The notes under the pieces are model-generated. The model had not been told where the DNA came from. It made no database searches and was given only the letters and a program-made list of their open reading frames with translations. Below are positions 10,506 to 53,517 of a stretch of 64,000 nucleotides of DNA, one piece after another. Each line of letters begins with the position of its first letter. Within the stretch, counting starts at the first letter, position 1. Made by a program: the position numbers and the translations under genes. Source of the DNA: Eledone cirrhosa (lineage: Eukaryota); NCBI GenBank assembly GCA_964016885.1, contig OZ024745.1, positions 98,022,001 through 98,086,000 on the forward strand. The letters are read 5' to 3'.

Positions 10506-10641
10506 CGTACTCTATCCACTGATTCTAGTTACTAGCAATGTTAGCTCCACAGACTGGCCGTGTTGGTGGTCCCGCGACAGGGTCACAGCCCGTTTTATGG
10601 TCTTTTCGAAGCCCATACAACGCCGGCACGTCATCCACCGT

Positions 10642-11376
10642 ATGCAGTTCTCTGGCTACAATCAGAGAGATAGAATCAGAGTGTATAGAGGAGCCAGAAC
10701 CAAATGGGAAAAAATGGTAAATAATGACATAAATGGGACCTGCCCCTTGTATAGGAGCAAATTTTGGAATAGAATAGAAAGAACTAGGAACAAGGCCAAT
10801 AGAATAAACTCATGGTATGATAGCAATAAATACCAGAATGTAATGTTCATCGATACAACCCCTAGAGGCGAACTAGCCTACAAATTTAGAAGGGCCCTAA
10901 ATAAACATAAACTCAATATTAAGATAGTAGAAAGACCAGGTACCTCCGTAAAAACACTTATTAGCAAGACATACCCGTTTCAAAGACCCTCATGTATAGA
11001 TAAGAAATGTATAACCTGTAAAATAAGCCCCCATATTAACTGTAAAATTAGAAATGTAGTGTATAGCATAAGATGTACTGAAGGACAATGTAGAAACAAA
11101 AATATAGTGTACATAGGTGAGACAGCTCGTAGTATAGGGGAACGGTTAAATGAACACTGGCGGGACCTTCAAGATAATAAAGAATCATCTGTACTCTACC
11201 AACATGCTAAGATAGAACACAAGGGTAAATTAGAGAACATAGAAATAAAACTAGAATCTACACACAGAAAAGATGCAATGTTTAGACAAATTACAGAGGC
11301 AATAAACATAAAAGAATTACAACCAAAATTAAATAGAAAATATGAGTGGAACAGCAACATCACAACTTACAATTAA
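10642..11376 (+). CDS. Penelope-like element ORF, 5'-truncated: RT C-terminal linker, Cys-rich motif and GIY-YIG endonuclease (possibly Nematis-like)
   Basis: SGY...PLYRSKFW...VMFIDTTPRGELA...VERPG...CxxxxCxxC...NVVYSIRC...VYIGETARSIGERLNEH...RQITEAINI...LNRKYEWN; open to TAA at 11376. Confidence 0.88.
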   Translation: MQFSGYNQRDRIRVYRGARTKWEKMVNNDINGTCPLYRSKFWNRIERTRNKANRINSWYDSNKYQNVMFIDTTPRGELAYKFRRALNKHKLNIKIVERPGTSVKTLISKTYPFQRPSCIDKKCITCKISPHINCKIRNVVYSIRCTEGQCRNKNIVYIGETARSIGERLNEHWRDLQDNKESSVLYQHAKIEHKGKLENIEIKLESTHRKDAMFRQITEAINIKELQPKLNRKYEWNSNITTYN

Positions 11377-11633: not shown

Positions 11634-11781
11634 ATATATAAACAACTATCTGGTTGTGGAACCAACCAACCAACCAGAAATTTATAAATTTGTAGATTTG
11701 TAAATTTATAAATTTATAAATATATAATAAATTGAAGTGAAAGCAACTGGTGCGTGTGTTTCTTATTGGCAACATGACCCT

Positions 11782-13543
11782 GGACGTCGCCCGGCGGACC
11801 GTTTTACCGAACACCTCCGGGATATTCGTCTCGGCGGTAGTTCCCCCATCGCCCGCCACTTTGGCTCCGCTGGACATTCCACGCACCACCTCACAGTCTG
11901 TGGCCTACTCCAATGCCACGGAACACCCGCCACCCTCCTCAGGGTCGAACAACGCACCATCTTCACCCTACAGACACACACTCCCCCCGGCCTGAACTCC
12001 CCACCCCTATTCCTTTAGCCTTTGACCGCCCTGCCCCCCCTCCCACACACACACACATATCCCCCACTAACACCACTAACACACTCCTCCTTTTCACCGC
12101 CCACCCCACAACTAACAATAATAACACCCCCACCCCACCCCCGACCACCCTTCCCCAACTAACAATACTAACACCCCCCCCTATTACGTACACACCCACC
12201 GGTACATATATACACGCACTCACACTAACCACACACCCCACTACCACCACTAACCCTCACCCACACATCCACTCACACCACCCCACAACTAATACCCCCC
12301 CGCGACCCCACGCACACAAACACACCCACACCCACTCTACACACCCTACCACCACTGACCCCCACTAACACACCCGCATTCAACCCTTTCCCCACCACCA
12401 GTATACTAACACCCACTAACACCCCCTTCACCACACACACACTCATCCAAACACGCACACACACACCAGTACACTACACTCCCTCCACCGGCCCTCACAC
12501 CTTTCTCTCCCTCTCCCCGCTCCACCCACACCCCTTCACACACACACATACCACTAACACCTCTACTAATACACCCCTCCTCACTCCACCTTTCACACCT
12601 ACCCATCCTCTCCCTTGTCCACCGCACCTCCGCACACACTGACACACCGACTTTCTCCACCTGCCATTCATCCCTACTGCTGCTATGCACTGACCCTCTG
12701 ACCACCTCTCCGCACACACAGACACGCAACCCACCTCCTGCCTTGACCCTCTGACCACTTCATGTTGCGCGTGCACCACACATCTCCCCTCTTCCGACCA
12801 CCCAACCACGGATTACACACATTGGACATCGCTCCCACGAATCAACTCCATCACAAGGAAAATATCTGGCATCTCACCACACCCTCTACGGAACTACCTT
12901 AGGAACTTACCCACGGACATACACTCACAAAAAATTTTTTCCCACACGCCACCTACATCTACAATACGTATAAACACCACACACGTGCGTACCACAACAT
13001 ATTTACACACTCAGCCTCCGGAATCCTCTCTTCCCTCCCCCACCCCTATGACCCCTCCCCATCCACACACGCACACACACCGACCTACACCCCACCCACA
13101 CACACCTTTTCCTGAACATGGAACCCCGTTCTTCCCCCAACTCTCACACTCACATACACCCACACACACACGTACACCTACACACACACACCACCTTCAG
13201 CCCTCCCCGCTCGGACACCCCGCCTCCCTCTCCCCACCACACCCGCCACCACCCCTACACATCCCCACACCCTTCCACCACTTGTTTATCTTCATGTTTA
13301 TTTTTATTCTTATGTTTTTATATTTATTTTCATTTGTACCGTTTCCTCCCATCCCCTTTTTTCTAAATGTCTCTCCCCCACTCCTCTACACACCCTTGGA
13401 ACTCTCTTCCCACACACTTTTCGCCTGAAGAAGGGCTTATGCCCGAAACGTCGTTCCCCACCACCACCCCACTCTCAAGAGCGTGAAACTAATAAACCTT
13501 TGTTCGTACTGCCTCTCTGTTTTGTTTCCGTTCCATTTTTCAC
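11782..13543 (+). mobile_element. 5'-truncated Penelope-like element (Neptune-like): GIY-YIG C-terminus to stop at 12018, long C/A-rich 3' UTR, hammerhead, AATAAA
   Basis: GRRPADRFTEHLRDIR...PIARHF...EQRTIFTL..GLNSPP; homologous to the 35572-35799 peptide. Confidence 0.85.
13422..13455 (+). ncRNA. Minimal type I hammerhead ribozyme
   Basis: CTGAAGA-A-GGGC(ttat)GCCC-GAAA-CG-TC; stem I is weak. Confidence 0.7.
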
Positions 13544-17730: not shown

Positions 17731-17863
<133 letters not shown>

Positions 17864-17948
17864 GAATAGAAATGGCTGTGTGGTTGCTATTTAAGGTAAC
17901 TTAAAATGCAGTGGGAATACGAAGAAAGCAAGAAGGGGAGGGGGGAGA

Positions 17949-18052
17949 TTTCCTCATCAGTTGTCTACTGGGAGTCTAGGATATGTCTACCCTTTAAAGA
18001 CAAGATACCACTTCACCCCAGGGCGTCAATAACTGTATAAGTTATTGGGAAA
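17949..18052 (-). ncRNA. Non-circularly permuted hammerhead-like RNA, divergent copy (GACA in place of GAAA)
   Basis: TTTCC-CAATAACT(tatac)AGTTATTG-ac-GCCC-TGGGG..GGTA-TC-TTGTCT-ttaaa-GGGT-a-GACA-TATC..TCCCA..AGACAA-CTGATGA-GGAAA. Confidence 0.7.
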
Positions 18053-18379
18053 ACGAAGGAAAGGGGGAAGGAAAGTAAAGGGGGAGAAAAGAGAAACAGT
18101 AACAAAACAGCGAAAAAAACACAAACCGAGCAATGTGCGAGCGACTATAGGTGGGAAATATAAGACCACTCGATAATAGAAATTAAGTTAAAGACCGAGT
18201 AATCGTGAGAAATGGCACACGTCCTATCGCCGCAGTTGTGAGAAGAGAACTGCTAACGGTCAGACGAGGGGGTGAAAGTGAGAGGGATAAAGGGAGAGGA
18301 AGAAAGCGCGGTAAGAGTAGAAAGGGGGGGGGAGAAAGAGGGGTGAGAGTAGAAAGTGGCGATATATATATATATATAT

Positions 18380-27989: not shown

Positions 27990-28767
<778 letters not shown>

Positions 28768-34309: not shown

Positions 34310-34351
34310 GGTTGACAGTCTGTTTCACGCTGGTTGGCGTTCATCAGAACC
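34310..34351 (-). ncRNA. Canonical minimal type I hammerhead
   Basis: GGTT-CTGATGA-ACGC(caacca)GCGT-GAAA-CAG(a)CTG-TC-AACC. Confidence 0.85.
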
Positions 34352-34439: not shown

Positions 34440-35799
34440 TTCTTCAATTCTTTCTCCTTCCCACCTGGCCCCTCCCGCCTTCTCTTTACCCTGGACATCA
34501 CCTCTCTCTATACCGTCATCCCTCATGATGATGGCCTCCGCACTCGCCAACATTTTTTTAGATTTACGCCCTACCCCTTACCCCAGCACTACCACTCTTC
34601 TCCGTCTGGCTGAGCTTGTTTTCACCCTCAAAGGATTTTCTTTTTCGGGTGAATTTTATCAGCAGGTCTCTGGGGTAGTGATGGGAACCAGAATGGGTCC
34701 GAACTATGCCAACTTGTTTGTTGGCTACGTCGAAGCCCAGATCTCTCCCAGTACGCTGGACCGACTCCTGAGCTATACGGTCGTTATATCGACGACTGTA
34801 TCGGCGCCACCTCTCTATTACGAGAACAACTCGACTGTTTTCTTTCTTTTGACCAATCTTTCCATCCTGCTCTCAATTTCCCCGCCTCTGTCTCTGATTC
34901 TTCTGTCGCTTTTCTAGATATTTCTCTATCTATTAATCACTCTCACCACAACCTCTCTACGTCCATGTTTATTAAACCAACAGACTCCCAATCTTATCTC
35001 GACTTCACCTCCTCCCATCCAACCCACACCAAACTCTCCATACCCAATTCCTCCGTCTTCGTCGGTTTTGTAGCCAGGACGACGATTTCGAAACCCATTC
35101 TCTTCCCATGGCTTCCTGCTTCATCTAGCGTGGATATCCCCCCACCCTGATCCAAGCTGCTCTCTCGCGCGCCCGTGAAACAGACCGCACCACAGCCCTC
35201 TCACCTCACCCGTATTCCTTTCCCTCTCACCTACCACCCCATCACCCTACTACTCCGGCGACATATCCTCCGTTCCTTCCGTATCCTCTCTTCTGACCCC
35301 GTCACTTCTCGCTTTTTTCCAAACCCACTCATTACTGCTTTTAAGCGCACCCGCAACCTCCGCGACCTCTCCCACGACTCCACCCGGCTCTCATCCATTT
35401 TCCTGTTCCCGCTGCAACACTTGTCCCTTTATTTCCACCCTCACCACTCTTACAGGCCCTAACGGGTCTTTCCGTATCCGCCATTCCTTCACCTGCACAT
35501 CCACCCACGTTGTCTATGCCCTCCGGTGTTCCCTTTGTGGGTCTTTACATATCGGACAAACGGGACGCCGAATGGCGGACCGTTTTGCCGAACATTTGAG
35601 AGACATCAGACTCGGTTTGGATACTCCTGTCGCCCGTCATTTCTGTTCTCCTGGTCATTCTTTCCTACACGTTTCAGTCTTGGGTGTCCTTTTACATCAT
35701 GGATCACAGGCCTCTCGCACCAGGACTGAACAAAGTCTGACTCACCGCCTTGGATCCTATTCCCCTCTTGGACTCAACTCACCTCCCCAATTTCTCTAA
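34440..35799 (+). pseudogene. Frameshifted Penelope-like (Neptune-like) RT + Zn-linker + GIY-YIG ORF
   Basis: FYQQVSGVVMGTRMGPNYANLF, YGRYIDDCIG, KPTDSQSYLDFTSSHP, CSRCNTC, VVYALRCSLCGSLHIGQTGRRMADRFAEH, GLNSPPQFL then stop. Confidence 0.9.
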
Positions 35800-41460: not shown

Positions 41461-41714
41461 TTAGTTTATAATAAATTATTAAGACAGGGTTGTAGAACGG
41501 CAGATATATCAGAGTTACAAATTAAATAACGTGTCTTATGTTCAGATAAGTTGTTTCATGGTCTGACTTTAAATCCAGCCAGGAATGAATTTAGCTTTCA
41601 TCTCAAGTGTTTGCTAGATTAAAGGGTCCGTAATGTATTAATATCACTTTAAATGGTTCTACCCTTTCTCTGTAAATATCTAACTTGATACATCGTCACA
41701 TGACATAGTATGTT

Positions 41715-44700
41715 ATATTACAGTATTTCAATATTACAGTATTACAATGGCACAGTATTACAATGGTACAGTATTACAATGGTACAGTATTACAATGGTA
41801 CAGTATTACAATGGTACAGGATTACAATGGTACAGTATTGCAATGGTACAGTATTACAATGGTACAGTATTACAATGGTACAGGATTACAATGGCACAGT
41901 ATTACAATGGTACAGTATTACAATGGTACAGTATTACAATGGTACAGTATTACAATGGTACAGGATTACAATGGTACAGTATTGCAATGGTACAGTATTA
42001 CAATGGTACAGTATTACAATGGTACAGTATTACAATGGTACAGGATTACAATGGTACAGTATTGCAATGGTACAGTATTACAATGGTACAGTATTACAAT
42101 GGTACAGGATTACAATGGTACAGTATTACAATGGTACAGTATTACAATGGTACAGGATTACAATGGTACAGTATTGCAATGGTACAGTATTATAATATTA
42201 CAGTATTACAATATTACAGTATTACAATATTACAGTATTACAATGGTACAGTATTACAATGGTACAGTATTATAATATTACAGTATCACAATATTACAGT
42301 ATTACAATATTACAGTATTACAATATTACAGTATTACAATGGTACAGTATTACAATATTACAGTATTACAATGGTACAGTATTACAATGGTACAGTATTA
42401 CAATATTACAGTATTACAATGATACAGTATTGCAATGGTACAGTATTACAATGGTACAGTATTACAATGGTACAGTATTATAATATTACAGTATTACAAT
42501 ATTACAGTATTATAATATTACAGTATTACAATGATACAGTATTACAATATTACAGTATTACAATGGTACAGTATTACAATATTACAGTATTACAATGGTA
42601 CAGTATTACAATATTACAGTATTACAATGATACAGTATTGCAATGGTACAGTATTACAATGGTACAGTATTATAATATTACAGTATTACAATGATACAGT
42701 ATTACAATATTACAGTGTTACAATGGTACAGTATTACAATATTACAGTATTACAATATTACAGTATTACAATGGTACAGTATTACAATATTAAAGTATTA
42801 CAATATTACAGTATTACAATGGTACAGTATTACAATATTACAGTATTACAATGGTACAGTATTACAATATTACAGTATTACAATATTACAGTATTACAAT
42901 GATACAGTATTACAATATTACAGTATTACAATGGTACAGTATTAAAATATTAAAGTGTTACAATGGTACAGTATTACAATGGTACAGTATTACAATGGTA
43001 CAGTATTATAATATTACAGTATTACAATATTACAGTATTACAATGGTACAGTATTACAATATTACAGTATTACAATATTACAGTATTATAATGGTACAGC
43101 ATTACAATATTACAGTATTACAATGGTACAGTATTACAATGGTACAGTATTACAATATTACAGTATTATAATATTACAGTATTACAATGGTACAGTATTA
43201 CAATATTACAGTATTACAATATTACAGTATTATAATATTACAGTATTACAATATTACAGTATTACAATGGTACAGTATTACAATGGTACAGTATTATAAT
43301 ATTACAGTATTACAATATTACAGTGTTACAATATTACAGTATTACAATGGTACAGTATTATAATATTACAGTATTACAATATTACAGTATTACAATATTA
43401 CAGTATTACAATGGTACAGTATTACAATGATACAGTATTATAATATTACAGTATTACAATATTACAGTATTACAATATTACAGTATTACAATATTACAGT
43501 ATTACAATATTACAGTTTTACAATGGTACAGTATTACAATGGTACAGTATTACAATATTACAGTATTACAATGATACAATATTACAATATTACAGTATTA
43601 CAATGGTACAGTATTACAATATTACAGTATTACAATATTACAGTGTTACAATGGTACAGTATTACAATGGTACAGTATTACAATATTACAGTATTACAAT
43701 ATTACAGTATTACAATGGTACAGTATTACAATATTACAGTATTACAATATTACAGTATTACAATGATACAGTATTACAATATTAAAGTGTTACAATGGTA
43801 CAGTATTACAATGGTACAGTATTACAATATTACAGTATTACAATGGTACAGTATTACAATATTACAGTATTACAATGATACAGTATTACAATATTACATT
43901 GTTACAATGGTACAGTATTACAATATTACAGTATTACAATGATACAGTATTACAATGGTACAGTATTATAATATTACAGTATTACAATGGTACAGTATTA
44001 CAATATTACAGTATTACAATGATACAGTATTAAAATATTACAGTATTAAAATATTACAGTATTACAATGGTACAGTATTACAATATTACAGTATTACAAT
44101 GGTACAGTATTACAATATTACAGTATTACAATGATACAGTATTACAATATTACAGTGTTACAATGGTACAGTATTACAATGGTACAGTATTACAATGGTA
44201 CAGTATTACAATATTACAGTATTACAATGATACAGTATTACAATATTACAGTGTTACAATATTACAGTATTGCAATGGTACAGGATTACAATGGTACAGT
44301 ATTACAATATTAAAGTATTACAATGGTACAGTATTACAATGGTACAGTATTACAATATTAAAGTGTTACAATATTACAGTATTACAATGGTACAGTATTA
44401 CAATATTAAAGTGTTACAATATTACAGTATTACAATGGTACAGTATTACAATGGTACAGTATTACAATGGTACAGGATTACAATATTACAGTATTACAAT
44501 GGTACAGTATTACAATGGTACAGTATTACAATATTACAGTATTACAATGGTACAGTATTACAATATTACAGTATTACAATGATACAGTATTACAATATTA
44601 CAGTGTTACAATATTACAGTATTACAATGGTACAGTATTACAATATTACAATATTACAATGGTACAGTATTACAATGGTACAGTATTACAATATTACAAT

Positions 44701-47700
44701 ATTACAATGGTACAGTATTACAATGGTACAGTATTACAATATTACAGTATTACAATATTACAGTATTACAATGGTACAGTATTACAATATTACAGTATTA
44801 CGATGATACAGTATTTCAATATTACAATATTACAATGGTACAGTATTACAATGATACACTATTACAATATTACAGTATTACAATGGTACAGTATTACAAT
44901 ATTACAGTATTACAATGGTACATTATTACAATGGTACAGTATTATAATATTACAGTATTACAATGGTACAGTATTATAATATTACAGTATTACAATGGTA
45001 CAGTATTACAATGGTACAGTATTACAATGGTGCAGTATTACAATATTACAGTATTACAATGGTACAGTATTACAATGGTACAGTATTACAATGATACAGT
45101 ATTACAATATTACAGTATTACAATGGTACAGTATTATAATATTACAGTATTACAAAATTACAGTATTACAATATTACAGTGTTACAATATTACAGTATTA
45201 TAATATTACAGTATTAGAATATTACAGTATTACAATGGTACAGTATTACAATGGTACAGTATTACAATGGTACAGTATTATAATATTACAGTATTACAAT
45301 GGTACAATATTACAATGGTACAGTATTATAATATTACAGCATTACAATATTACAGTATTACAATATTACAGTATTACAATGGTACATTATTATAATATTA
45401 CAGTATTACAATATTACAGTATTACAATATTACAGTATTACAATGGTACAGTATTACAATATTACAGTGTTACAATGGTACAGTATTATAATGGTACAGT
45501 ATTATAATATTACAGTATTACAATATTACAGCATTACAATATTACAGTATTACAATATTACAGTATTACAATGGTACAGTATTATAATATTACAGTATTA
45601 CAATATTACAGTATTACAATATTACAGTATTACAATATTACAGTATTACAATGGTACAGTATTATAATATTACAGTATTACAATATTACAGTATTACAAT
45701 ATTACAGTATTACAATGGTACAGTATTACAATTGTACAGTATTACAATATTACAGTATTACAATATTACAGTATTACAATATTACAGTATTACAATGGTA
45801 CAGTATTACAATATTACAGTATTACAATATTACAGTATTACAATGGTACAGTATTACAATTGTACAGTATTACAATATTACAGTATTACAATGGTACAGT
45901 ATTACAATGGTACAGTATTACAATATTACAGTATTACAATATTACAGTGTTACAATGGTACAGTATTACAATGGTACAGTATTATAATATTACAGTATTA
46001 CAATGGTACAGTATTACAATATTACAGTATTACAATGGTACAGTATTACAATGGTACAGTATTATAATATTACAGTATTACAATATTACAGTGTTACAAT
46101 GGTACAGTATTACAATGGTACAGTATTATAATATTACAGTATTACAATATTACAGTATTACAATATTACAGTATTACAATGGTACAGTATTACAATATTA
46201 CAGTATTACAATATTACAGTATTACAATGGTACAGTATTACAATGGTACAGTATTACAATATTACATTGTTACAATGGTACAGTATTACAATGGTACAGC
46301 ATTACAATATTACAGTATTACAATGGTACAGTATTACAATGGTACAGTATTACAATATTACATTGTTACAATGGTACAGTATTACAATGGTACAGTATTA
46401 CAATGGTACAGTATTACAATGGTACAGTATTACAATATTACAGTATTACAATATTACAGTATTACAATATTACAGTTTTACAATGGTACAGTATTACAAT
46501 GGTACAGTATTACAATGGTACAGTATTACAATGGTACAGTATTACAATGGTACAGTATTACAATATTACAGTATTACAATATTACAGTATTACAATATTA
46601 CAGTTTTACAATGGTACAGTATTACAATGGTACAGTATTACAATGGTACAGTATTACAATGGTACAGTATTACAATATTACAGTATTACAATATTACAGT
46701 GTTACAATGGTACAGCATTACAATATTACAGTGTTACAATGGTACAGCATTACAATATTACAGTATTACAATGGTACAGTATTACAATATTACATTGTTA
46801 CAATGGTACAGTATTACAATGGTACAGTATTACAATATTACAGTATTACAATGGTACAGCATTACAATATTACAGTATTACAATGGTACAGTATTAAAAT
46901 ATTACAGTATTACAATATTACAATATTACAATGGTACAGTGTGACAATATTACAGTATTACAATGGTACAGTATTACAATAGTACAGTATTACAATGGTA
47001 CAGTATTAAAATATTACAGTATTACAATATTACAGTATTACAATGGTACAGTATTACAATGGTACAGTATTACAATGGTACAGTATTACAATGGTACAGT
47101 GTGATAATAGTACAGTATTACAATATTACAGTATTACAATGGTACAGTATTACAATAGTACATTATTACAATATTTCAGTATTACAATATTACAGTATTA
47201 CAATGGTACAGTATTACAATACTACAGTATTACAATTGTACAGTATTACAATATTACAGTGTTACAATATTACAGTATTACAATGGTACAGTATTACAAT
47301 GATACAGTATTACAATGGTACAGTGTGACAATATTACAGTATTACAATGGTACAGTATTACAATGGTACAGTATTAAAATATTACAGTATTACAATATTA
47401 CAGTATTACAATGGTACAGTGTGACAATAGTACAGTATTACAATGGTACAGTATTACAATGGTACAGTATTACAATAGTACAGTATTACAATGGTACAGT
47501 ATTACAATACTTCAGTATTACAATATTACAGTATTACAATGGTACAGTGTGACAATACTACAGTATTACAATTGTACAGTATTACAATGGTACAGTATTA
47601 CAATATTACAGTGTTACAATATTACAGTATTACAATGGTACAGTATTACAATGGTACAGTATTACAATGGTACAGTGTGATAATAGTACAGTATTACAAT

Positions 47701-47817
47701 ATTACAGTATTACAATGGTACAGTATTACAATAGTACAATATTACGATGGTACAGTATTAAAATATTACAGTATTACAATATTACAGTATTACAATGGTA
47801 CAGTATTACAATGGTAC
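41715..47817. repeat. ~6.1-kb satellite, 16-bp unit TACAGTATTACAAT(GG/AT) built from two 8-mers
   Basis: Seen directly. Confidence 0.97.
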
Positions 47818-47900
47818 ATAATATTTGCCAGAGTGGGTTTCGTAAAGACCAACGAAACAACCACTATGCATTGAAAATAGATGTTTTATTTTATAAGTAA

Positions 47901-48659
47901 CTAGCAGAATAGCCCGGCCTTGCTCGGGATTCTAAACATAGATTGGCATGTTTATCCCTCCTTTCTGAAACAGTTTCGTCGTATGTTCACCAATTGATGC
48001 AGAAGTCCTAATAAAAAGTGAAGTCGCCTTGGGTGGATAAGCAAATAATTTTCCATTAAGATTTTTCAAAAGCATGTAATTGCGTTCCCTCTCTATTTTG
48101 TTGTTGCTTTTGCTGCTGTCGGGCCTCGTGAAATAAATCGTTTGTTTATATTTTGTTATTATGTATGCAAAAGTATCTGTACACGAATATATAATTATAT
48201 ATATATATATATATTAAAATGACAGATTAAAGTTTAAGCGAAGAATCGCTGCTGTCACCCTTAATGGGATCTTCTGAAACTAAAAAAATCAATCTGTGAA
48301 CGCAGAAGTAAATATCTCGAAAAACGTTACACACTATATATACATATATACACACACAAATAGCGTCATAATGTCGTAATGCAGACAGCCAGAAATACAG
48401 ACAGATGTTATAAGGGCGCGACGTCGTAGCTATGTATCTATCTAAAAAGACAGACTAAGAATTATAGAGAGATCGCTAAACGGCGCCTAATGCGGTCCCT
48501 AGGGCATTGAAAATTTGAAATATATTTTGCTTAAAACACTCACACGACCATAAGTATTACATGTGTAAAGTTTGAAACAATCGGTTGGGTGGTTCTCGAG
48601 TGTTAGGGAGTCAAACAGACAGATAGAGAGACAGACATTCACTGTTTTAGATATATAGA
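47901..48659 (-). mobile_element. Non-autonomous Helitron
   Basis: Minus strand A|TCTATATATCTAAAA...CCCGAGCAAGGCCGGG hairpin...CTAG|T, inserted at AT. Confidence 0.8.
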
Positions 48660-49281: not shown

Positions 49282-49496
49282 GTTAAAAATGTACATCCAC
49301 ATATGTATACTGAAATACTAGTATGCATATGAATACACACACGTATACATATGTAGATGTACCAAGTTTTTCACTGGTCACTTTACTGTGAGTGTCCAGC
49401 TATTCTGTATGTAAACACACAGACAAACCGGTTTTTAGAGTCATACTGGTTTTTGAGGAAACGCCTTTCCTCTATTCTCCAGAAAGCCAGACAAGG

Positions 49497-49541
49497 AATA
49501 TTGAACTAGTTTCGTTGTTGTTACAACTCATCAGCAATATT
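49497..49541 (-). ncRNA. Canonical type I hammerhead with palindromic stem III
   Basis: AATATTG-CTGATGA-GTTG(taacaa)CAAC-GAAA-CTAG-TT-CAATATT. Confidence 0.85.
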
Positions 49542-49695
49542 TACCTATCTCCCGGCCTTTCTGGAGAATTGTAAAAGCACATATCGTTATATGCTTTTTC
49601 TATGAAAATTAGTAGTGGGCAGACTAATTTGCATAGAGTGTGAGTACGTACCGGTTCAACGGAGACGATGGGTACTTAATTACATATATATATAT

Positions 49696-52487: not shown

Positions 52488-52731
52488 GTAACACAGAGGA
52501 GACTGAGGTTAGCTGGACATGCTCACCGACATCCAGAGTTGACATTGCACTCAGTACTCCTTTGGGAGCCCCTACATGGACACACTAGAAGAGGAAGACC
52601 AAGGTTAACGTATGTTGATGCCCTAAGGACAGACACTGGTCTGTTGGAGACGCAGGACATGGCAGCGATAATGATGGACAGAGACCGCTGGAGAGAACTT
52701 GTCCATGGATCTCGGGAATTTTACCCGCCTT

Positions 52732-52733
<2 letters not shown>
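52488..52733 (+). pseudogene. RTE-clade LINE 3' end, preceded by an unassigned repeat-like segment at ~52310-52485
   Basis: RRLRLAGHAHRH...VLLWEPLHGHTRRGRPRLTYVD...DRDRWRELV. Confidence 0.8.
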
Positions 52734-52788
<55 letters not shown>

Positions 52789-52821
52789 TACATGTCTCGC
52801 TCGCTTCACGCTATATTACTT

Positions 52822-52923
52822 GTCCCAATAGCTTCATTTAGCTATTGCTCGCATCAACTAGGAGTATATGATTTTTAAAGCGATGAAATACCAATGAAGG
52901 TTGGAAAATCACTGATGAAGGAC
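52822..52923 (+). ncRNA. Non-circularly permuted hammerhead-like RNA, intact core
   Basis: GTCC-CAATAGCT(tcattt)AGCTATTG-c-TCGC-a-TCAAC..GTA-TA-TGATTTT-taaa-GCGA-T-GAAA-TAC..GTTGG-AAAATCA-CTGATGA-A-GGAC. Confidence 0.78.
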
Positions 52924-53340
52924 TAATTTTATTCATATGTAACCCATGTGCAACCACGCAGCATTCCATTCTTCTCATATTTATATTTTTTCCTCAGCTG
53001 CGCTTGTCTGTTTCTTTCTTACTGCTTCCCCCTCTCTCTGTATCTCTCACCTTCTTTTACCCCCTCTGCTCGGTCACACTCTCTCGACTGGCCTCTTCCT
53101 CACACTTCCACTCACTCACTCTCTGCTTCTCCCCTTCTCTCACTTCCTCCCGTTTGACCTGTGTGAAATCCTTTTCTCGCTCACATCTCACCCATGTCGG
53201 ATGGTCTGTATATCTCTCTCGCCTATGAATTCACCAAGCTTAAGCTTAATAGATATCATGGACTTGTTTCTTCCTATCTTTCTGTTGCAATACCATCTTT
53301 GTTTGTTTACATGTCTCGCTTGCTTCACGCTATATTACTT

Positions 53341-53441
53341 GCCCCAATAGCTTTCTTAGCTATTGCTCGCACCAACTAGAGGTATATGATTTTTAAAGCG
53401 ATGAAATACCAATGAAGGTTGTAAAATCACTGATCAAGGAC
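53341..53441 (+). ncRNA. Second copy of the permuted hammerhead (core changed to CTGATCA)
   Basis: Direct repeat of 52822-52923 with GGTA/TACC stem III and G8 changed to C. Confidence 0.65.
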
Positions 53442-53449
53442 TAATTTTA

Positions 53450-53517
<68 letters not shown>

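Follow-up and report, generated by a model that had tools for sequence, protein, structure and literature searches.

The natural hammerhead ribozymes are described in six layouts, a list that, in the accessible text of PMC10085705, rests on three sequence blocks held to be uninterruptible, the block on the GAAA side among them. Insertions into the hammerhead core, as given in the accessible part of PMC3088659, amount to one or two bases only. Among the described layouts, type-SGC (PMC10085705) has the block order site, GAAA, CUGANGA, a full core, an optional bulge after A9, and a short linker that leads from stem I into the strand before GAAA; this strand pairs with the one that follows CUGANGA, an interaction helix encloses the CUGANGA block, and the alignment rows provided in the accessible text are environmental contigs. 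In type II hammerheads (GSC, PMC3088659), stem II is the outermost helix, opening and closing the domain, and GAAA directly follows the first stem II strand.

Two kinds of mobile element are relevant to the repeat described below. Non-LTR retrozymes, according to the accessible portions of PMC7229834 and bioRxiv 10.64898/2026.07.22.740005, are non-coding, low-GC elements arranged head to tail, with one type I hammerhead in each unit of ~150-450 bp, often in long arrays; circular RNA has been shown for them, and Penelope-like helpers have been proposed for the animal retrozymes. The Naiad clade (PMC8557442) inserts into (TA)n targets as partial tandems and inverted truncated copies with an optional tail, and is reported in the accessible text to be without canonical hammerheads, the words 'HHR_core' and 'HHR_half_core' being given there with no structure attached.

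We analysed a 64,000-nt window of the Eledone cirrhosa genome (contig OZ024745.1, 98022001-98086000) and searched the whole assembly of 3.0 Gb in 1,796 contigs. At 17862..18370 on the minus strand, the window holds a 509-bp, 5′-truncated, sub-monomer copy of a non-coding repeat, assigned to subfamily B by blastn (87% identity to a real B monomer), flanked by (TA)n/(CT)n tracts and containing one ribozyme motif. Related copies lie at 28063..28671 on the minus strand (A28, a young subfamily, slightly longer than a single 531-nt unit and carrying a full motif at ~28125-28225) and at 52783..53459 on the plus strand (A52, 1.3 units of 518 nt with two motifs). In our judgement, the 18-kb locus is probably a mutated version of an RNA fold that has been conserved with a full hammerhead core in a rewired strand order, is predicted to cut itself, and resides on a repeat likely copied by Penelope-like proteins.

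Read along the minus strand, the motif begins with the 5′ strand of stem II (18048..18052), which ends in C11.1 and covaries with 17949-17953 across subfamilies. There follow an 8-bp hairpin (18027..18047), the first inserted arm of a four-way junction, with four pairs changed on both sides and present in minimum-energy folds; the 5′ strand of P2c, the second inserted arm (18023..18026, ACGC/GCGU here and UCGC/GCGA elsewhere); and the 5′ strand of P4 (18016..18021), a helix that ties the outer ends of stem I and P2c and shows both-sided change in 4/5 pairs. The site block (17998..18009) comprises the stem III strand GGUA, U16.1, C17 and the stem I strand UUGUCU, and by analogy with the hammerhead core the predicted cut falls between 18004 and 18003. 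The second half proceeds through the UUAAA linker from stem I to P2c (17993..17997; UUAAA or UUAAU in 8/8 subfamilies), a segment that, by comparison with the subfamily majority, holds the 3′ strand of P2c, a spacer A, the GAAA position and the other stem III strand (17980..17992), the 3′ strand of P4 with one private G-C to G-U change (17968..17973), and the CUGAUGA block (17949..17966), in which the stem I strand AGACAA precedes CUGAUGA (17960-17954), an optional bulge, and the 3′ strand of stem II from G10.1. All helix partners are found within about 105 nt. The hammerhead core (CUGANGA, GAAA, UH and the A15.1-U16.1 pair) is complete in 8/8 subfamily majorities and is flanked by stems I, II and III; the 18-kb copy itself reads GACA.

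Two simpler assignments of stem II were considered and rejected. A direct helix of the type-SGC kind, between the strands before GAAA and after CUGAUGA, forms 0-1 bp in 8/8 subfamilies, and a one-pair stem II between the base after CUGAUGA and the base before GAAA is contradicted by combinations that include A/A, C/A and an absent base. The base after CUGAUGA may be A, G, U, C or missing, and it behaves as a bulge. Since this recalls the optional bulge of type-SGC, GGAC/GUCC is read as the true stem II with a G10.1-C11.1 pair, and it follows that C11.1 and G12 are separated by two inserted elements, the hairpin and P2c. Backbone continuity from position 11.1 to G12 is absent, and the four-way junction that results has zero to two unpaired bases. 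The geometry suggests that stem II would stack on the core in the usual hammerhead manner, retaining the G10.1-C11.1 pair and allowing a bulge after A9. The chain would exit the core after C11.1, build the second stack of the junction from the hairpin and P2c, and re-enter at G12, which is the general base of the hammerhead. P2c, the short linker and P4 may together hold the outer end of stem I, replacing the usual loop-loop contact.

The motif thus agrees with type-SGC, as far as the accessible text of PMC10085705 describes it, in block order, full core, optional bulge and stem I linker. In contrast to type-SGC, stem II is formed here with a separate upstream strand, and the extra helix P4 extends stem III instead of surrounding the CUGANGA block; the sequence preceding stem I finds its partner upstream, and the one following CUGAUGA already belongs to stem II. 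Because two defining features of type-SGC fail, along with the backbone continuity of all described hammerheads, we do not regard the motif as a type-SGC member. It resembles type II in that stem II opens and closes the domain, but ~60 nt, including the whole site block, separate the first stem II strand from GAAA. Types I to III, as modelled in Rfam, have a circular block order and an Rfam match, and this motif has neither; a scan of 17949-18052 gave no match among 147 listed matches (E up to 1), and six representative loci gave 0 gathering-level matches. Among the open-access papers and preprint main texts searched, we found no published description of this layout.

The initial annotation had proposed that the 18-kb copy is a divergent relative of the 28-kb and 52-kb copies in which four helices were rewritten with pairing and order retained. 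The words that it quoted are present at 17949-18052 on the minus strand, and both reference copies read as described. Three of the four rewritten helices stand. Stem I does change from UGAUUU/AAAUCA to UUGUCU/AGACAA, with three pairs altered on both sides, and the closing helix changes from GUCC/GGAC to UUCC/GGAA. The helix corresponding to CCAAC/GUUGG exists as well, in a different register: its counterpart is CUGGG/CCCAG, one base off the pairing proposed. The fourth, GCCC/GGGU in place of UCGC/GCGA, was misregistered; ACGC/GCGU is the pairing of the subfamily, in which U-A has genuinely become A-U, and GGGU is a lesion of the 18-kb copy, at which 27/33 of the nearest copies carry C and 1/33 carries G. 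Among 100 listed of 166 matches genome-wide, the P2c 3′ strand reads GCGT in 94, GTGT in 6 and GGGT in 0. The hairpin, GGUA-UH and CUGAUGA proved to be conserved, as did the order in which all the helices follow one another, with the refinements that the 52-kb hairpin has an A-U to G-C change of its own and that the linker described as a kept UUAAA is UUAAU in the 28-kb family.

The annotation had also set a test beforehand, namely whether the subfamily consensus would keep the pairings and restore GAAA. The subfamily B majority keeps every pairing, and GAAA returns in 29/33 nearest copies and in 98/100 listed of 166 matches. The 18-kb copy differs from this majority at 5/118 positions, which include a core A and one P2c base (lesions at 17985 and 17991). 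In line with the inactivity that the annotation suggested from GACA, it is probably a dead copy of an older subfamily, and its value lies in the covariation that it supplies. The annotation had noted neither the departure of stem II from the permuted hammerheads already known nor the occurrence of the motif in Naiad elements.

Comparison of subfamily majorities gives a consistent picture of the fold. Between subfamily B and the 52-kb subfamily, 20 of 31 pairs are the same, 1 is changed on one side, 10 are changed on both sides and 0 are broken, and random placement of the 21 substitutions left all 31 pairs intact in 0/200,000 trials. Across the eight majorities, 247/248 pair cells are standard. 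Private changes in the helices of 32 B copies behave differently, with 25 breaking pairs, 10 keeping them and 0 compensating; compensation between subfamilies set against decay within copies indicates selection on the source lineage, with the 18-kb copy decaying, and agrees with the earlier proposal of selection on the fold. Covariation is found in five of six helices, stem III being nearly invariant, with only a wobble change in this genome; stem I contributes 3 both-sided pairs, stem II contributes 1, and P2c has a single both-sided change within this genome. An alignment of 13 representative copies, whose B rows are shifted by one column in stem II, has 97.4% of its cells paired and 13/32 pairs altered on both sides. 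This combination is reached in 0/500 shuffles, and slid controls pair at 27-47%. These shuffle tests are inflated, as the helices were drawn from the same sequences and the subfamilies are related; they therefore lean towards the drawn structure, and independent coral-type copies weigh more. Minimum-energy folding, which cannot represent stem I or P2c, beats shuffles only modestly (z -0.3 to -3.0, with -0.3 for the 18-kb copy), and rod-like circular folding is weak, with energies 0.9-3.2 standard deviations below 12 crude shuffles. A six-helix descriptor gave 147 matches in 773 kb of real sequence (143 of this genome's type and 4 coral-type) and 0 in 30.9 Mb of shuffled sequence.

The same wiring, in unrelated letters, occurs near the 3′ end of 9/54 Naiad consensuses in the supplement of PMC8557442, a count made by eye around CUGANGA words in part of the entries, where line breaks hide some words. 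The consensuses are Bfor, Amil, Aacu, Anas, Movir-2, EuTe, Obim, Ovul and the entry after the Plae header (attributed by position), and the hosts include a ctenophore, three corals, a box jellyfish, a clam shrimp, two octopuses and probably an acanthocephalan; in the ctenophore consensus, Bfor, stem I is only 2 bp. A scan of metagenome contigs with the coral-type motif found it in 19, of which 4 pass the full six-helix descriptor and the remaining 15 are either truncated where the contig stops or damaged; a stricter version of the descriptor missed the four coral-type copies, which have two G-U pairs in the hairpin. Viral contigs gave 0 matches. In the coral-type copies the P2c equivalent is 6 bp, the linker is UUAAU and stem III is wholly different. 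One contig, L205, passes the whole descriptor with its motif ~250 nt behind Naiad-type RT fragments, and another, L203, carries an RT end and a damaged motif, the spacing in the two being about 250-280 nt on the same strand. The putative RT motifs in L205 and L203 were labelled after the supplement of PMC8557442 and general knowledge of such enzymes, and Pfam has no model for them.

These independent copies bear directly on the possibility that the pairings are due to chance or to the alignment of related repeats. The helices are short, they were picked by eye in related sequences, and the 18-kb copy folds scarcely better than its shuffles. The covariation counts, the shuffle controls and the descriptor (147 versus 0) point the other way, and coral-type copies, found in contigs from other hosts, repeat the wiring although their letters are unrelated. 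We give this reading virtually no credence: it is already refuted by the shuffle controls and the coral-type copies, and the fold and selection on it are established.

It is probable, in our estimation, that the motif represents a further natural hammerhead architecture: non-circularly permuted, its GAAA block split by a four-way junction, active, old, common to Naiads from ctenophores to cephalopods, and spread as thousands of retrozyme-like units in this genome. If so, descriptor searches have missed a ribozyme in many Naiads; these elements are said to prosper without hammerheads, and many seem to carry one that standard descriptors do not see. The motif interrupts one of the supposedly uninterruptible blocks next to G12 and keeps its core across several phyla. 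It would also make non-circular permutations, which the accessible type-SGC alignment (PMC10085705) places in environmental contigs, a high-copy component of animal genomes.

In a separate reading of the Naiad consensuses of PMC8557442, by eye and within the accessible entries, about six passages in nematode Naiads (Naiad-1, -2 and -3 of Nippostrongylus and their neighbours) read as type-CSG with a direct stem II. The type-CSG hammerhead has been published from two examples only. The end of Naiad-1_Movir, in the accessible part of File S5 of the same paper, contains words that resemble the twister ribozyme consensus.

The repeat that carries the motif in E. cirrhosa is pyrimidine-rich and non-coding, with units of ~520-640 nt estimated from tandem spacings. 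A 29-place pattern spanning the site block through GAAA has at least 5,266 matches genome-wide versus 1 in the control, a lower bound because the pattern leaves out families with the UUAAU linker. A second pattern has 2,010 matches versus 0, the subfamily B pattern 166 versus 0, and searches with each window copy returned at least 40-41 scored matches apiece. The 189 distinct complete motifs fall into 22 clusters, of which eight with at least 3 members (171 motifs) were taken as subfamilies; there are thus at least eight, among them subfamily B with the 18-kb copy. A search for families with a changed stem I gave 19 matches versus 7 in the control, none of them a new motif-bearing family. The body of B aligns with other families barely above shuffled controls, while the motif core is kept. 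Common sequence extends no further than ~1.4 units upstream in any family, and it comes back to the motif within 913 nt in 7/7 groups.

Copies are dispersed and at most ~1.4 units long, with one motif per unit. They lie in microsatellites as partial tandems, frequently beside a truncated copy in inverted orientation. Their 5′ ends scatter, whereas 3′ ends fall at fixed positions, two of which are separated by 39-48 nt in five families. Features of Penelope-like derivatives (partial tandems, inverted 5′-truncated copies, fixed 3′ ends with an optional tail, and microsatellite targets) are all present; the insertion pattern matches the Naiad description (PMC8557442), and the 3′ ends agree with the Penelope-like element in PMC11167929, for which reverse transcription from two start sites and an optional tail are described. 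Like the retrozymes, the repeat is non-coding and low in GC, with head-to-tail units and one hammerhead per unit; it differs from them in its rewired motif and its 520-640-nt dispersed units. The repeat is likely copied by Penelope-like retrotransposon proteins. It may be viewed as a non-autonomous, retrozyme-like element of 520-640 nt with a tail module in common with Naiad elements; its reverse transcription into (TA)n would begin at either of two set positions. As copies read through one or two intact motifs, the template would be a circular or uncut RNA.

Whether the fold cuts is a separate matter from whether it exists. Activity is not guaranteed, because the backbone break between C11.1 and G12 lies outside the core variants of PMC3088659 and PMC10085705 assumes the block to be unbroken, in the portions accessible. 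The genome itself offers one relevant event. An amplified composite unit of ~845 nt contains a 320-nt half unit that ends exactly at the predicted cut and is joined, with no microhomology, to monomer position ~201 (loci L224-L239, L093, L181 and L189). A break-detecting pattern found this junction in 51 of its 85 matches, giving at least 51 junctions genome-wide; a set of 16 loci examined points to a single origin, plus one independent break at the same bond in L233. The composite may have arisen by ligation of a cleavage product to the 5′ end of a transcript, and its junction counts as one ancestral event noticed after the fact. The other 34/85 matches show no clear excess of breaks at the predicted cut, and 5/189 copies have a 5′ end within 5 nt of it, where ~4 are expected, so that there is no excess of 5′ ends.

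The latter result, together with the fixed distance of the motif from stereotyped 3′ ends, would fit a fold that is real and no longer cuts, a hammerhead-derived signal bound by the element's protein for reverse transcription or integration. In keeping with this, the Penelope-like element PAc did not require cleavage in vitro, its main substrate being RNA left uncut (PMC11167929), and stem I is just 2 bp in the ctenophore consensus. PAc is also without an excess of 5′ ends at its cut, according to the accessible text of that paper. We consider loss of cutting unlikely, given that CUGANGA, GAAA, the U16.1-A15.1 pair and a base other than G at position 17 persist across phyla, although no helix retains its sequence, that H17 is only A or C in subfamily majorities, and that one variant is joined exactly at the predicted cut.

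Cutting could also be confined to pairs of molecules or tandem units that swap strands, the single-chain fold not being the active form. The small Penelope and axolotl hammerheads provide a model, dimer-dependent cleavage is reported for axolotl retrozymes (PMC7229834, accessible text), repeat units do occur as tandems, and P4, with linkers of just 3-7 nt in this genome's families, has to bridge the distance between the tips of stems III and I. Yet stem III lacks self-complementarity, the two strands of each helix lie close together in one chain, and type-SGC ribozymes that must span a comparable gap cut themselves within one transcript in the accessible data of PMC10085705. We hold an obligatory strand swap to be improbable, marginally more so than loss of cutting, and the motif most likely works as a self-cleaving hammerhead.

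The young age of A28 (98-99% identity among its best 40 matches) indicates that a helper was active recently. The ORF expected of a Naiad, with a GIY-YIG endonuclease at its N terminus and an RT at its C terminus, was not found in the repeat units, which have no ORF, and no similarity to the octopus Naiad motif of the accessible PMC8557442 entries was detected, with 0 matches in this genome. A search of this genome for an autonomous motif-bearing partner found none; the coral RT fragment retrieved three old, broken Naiad-like RT remnants that lack the motif (L221-L223), a back-translated RT pattern gave 2 chance matches genome-wide, and no Naiad motif pairs occur in the loci examined. Long ORFs beside copies were rejected as partners, being unrelated Penelope-type neighbours. 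The helper may be another Penelope-like family, and fragments of Penelope-like ORFs from at least two families, one with a GIY-YIG domain, are candidates (10624-11274, 11755-12012 and 34660-35796 of the window, and L063:2331-3131).

Other repeats share the window. A LINE-like 3′ end precedes a copy at ~52500-52735 and again in L002, with (TA)n between in both, a pairing that probably reflects a shared target tract. A 16-bp satellite forms a long array at ~41575-48000. A conventional type I hammerhead-like motif of another repeat lies at 49481-49552 on the minus strand (Rfam HH9, 37 bits, below gathering), and further type I-like CUGANGA words in other repeats, none with an Rfam match, are located at 34347 and 52007 on the minus strand and at 13425, 27603, 28948 and 51458 on the plus strand.
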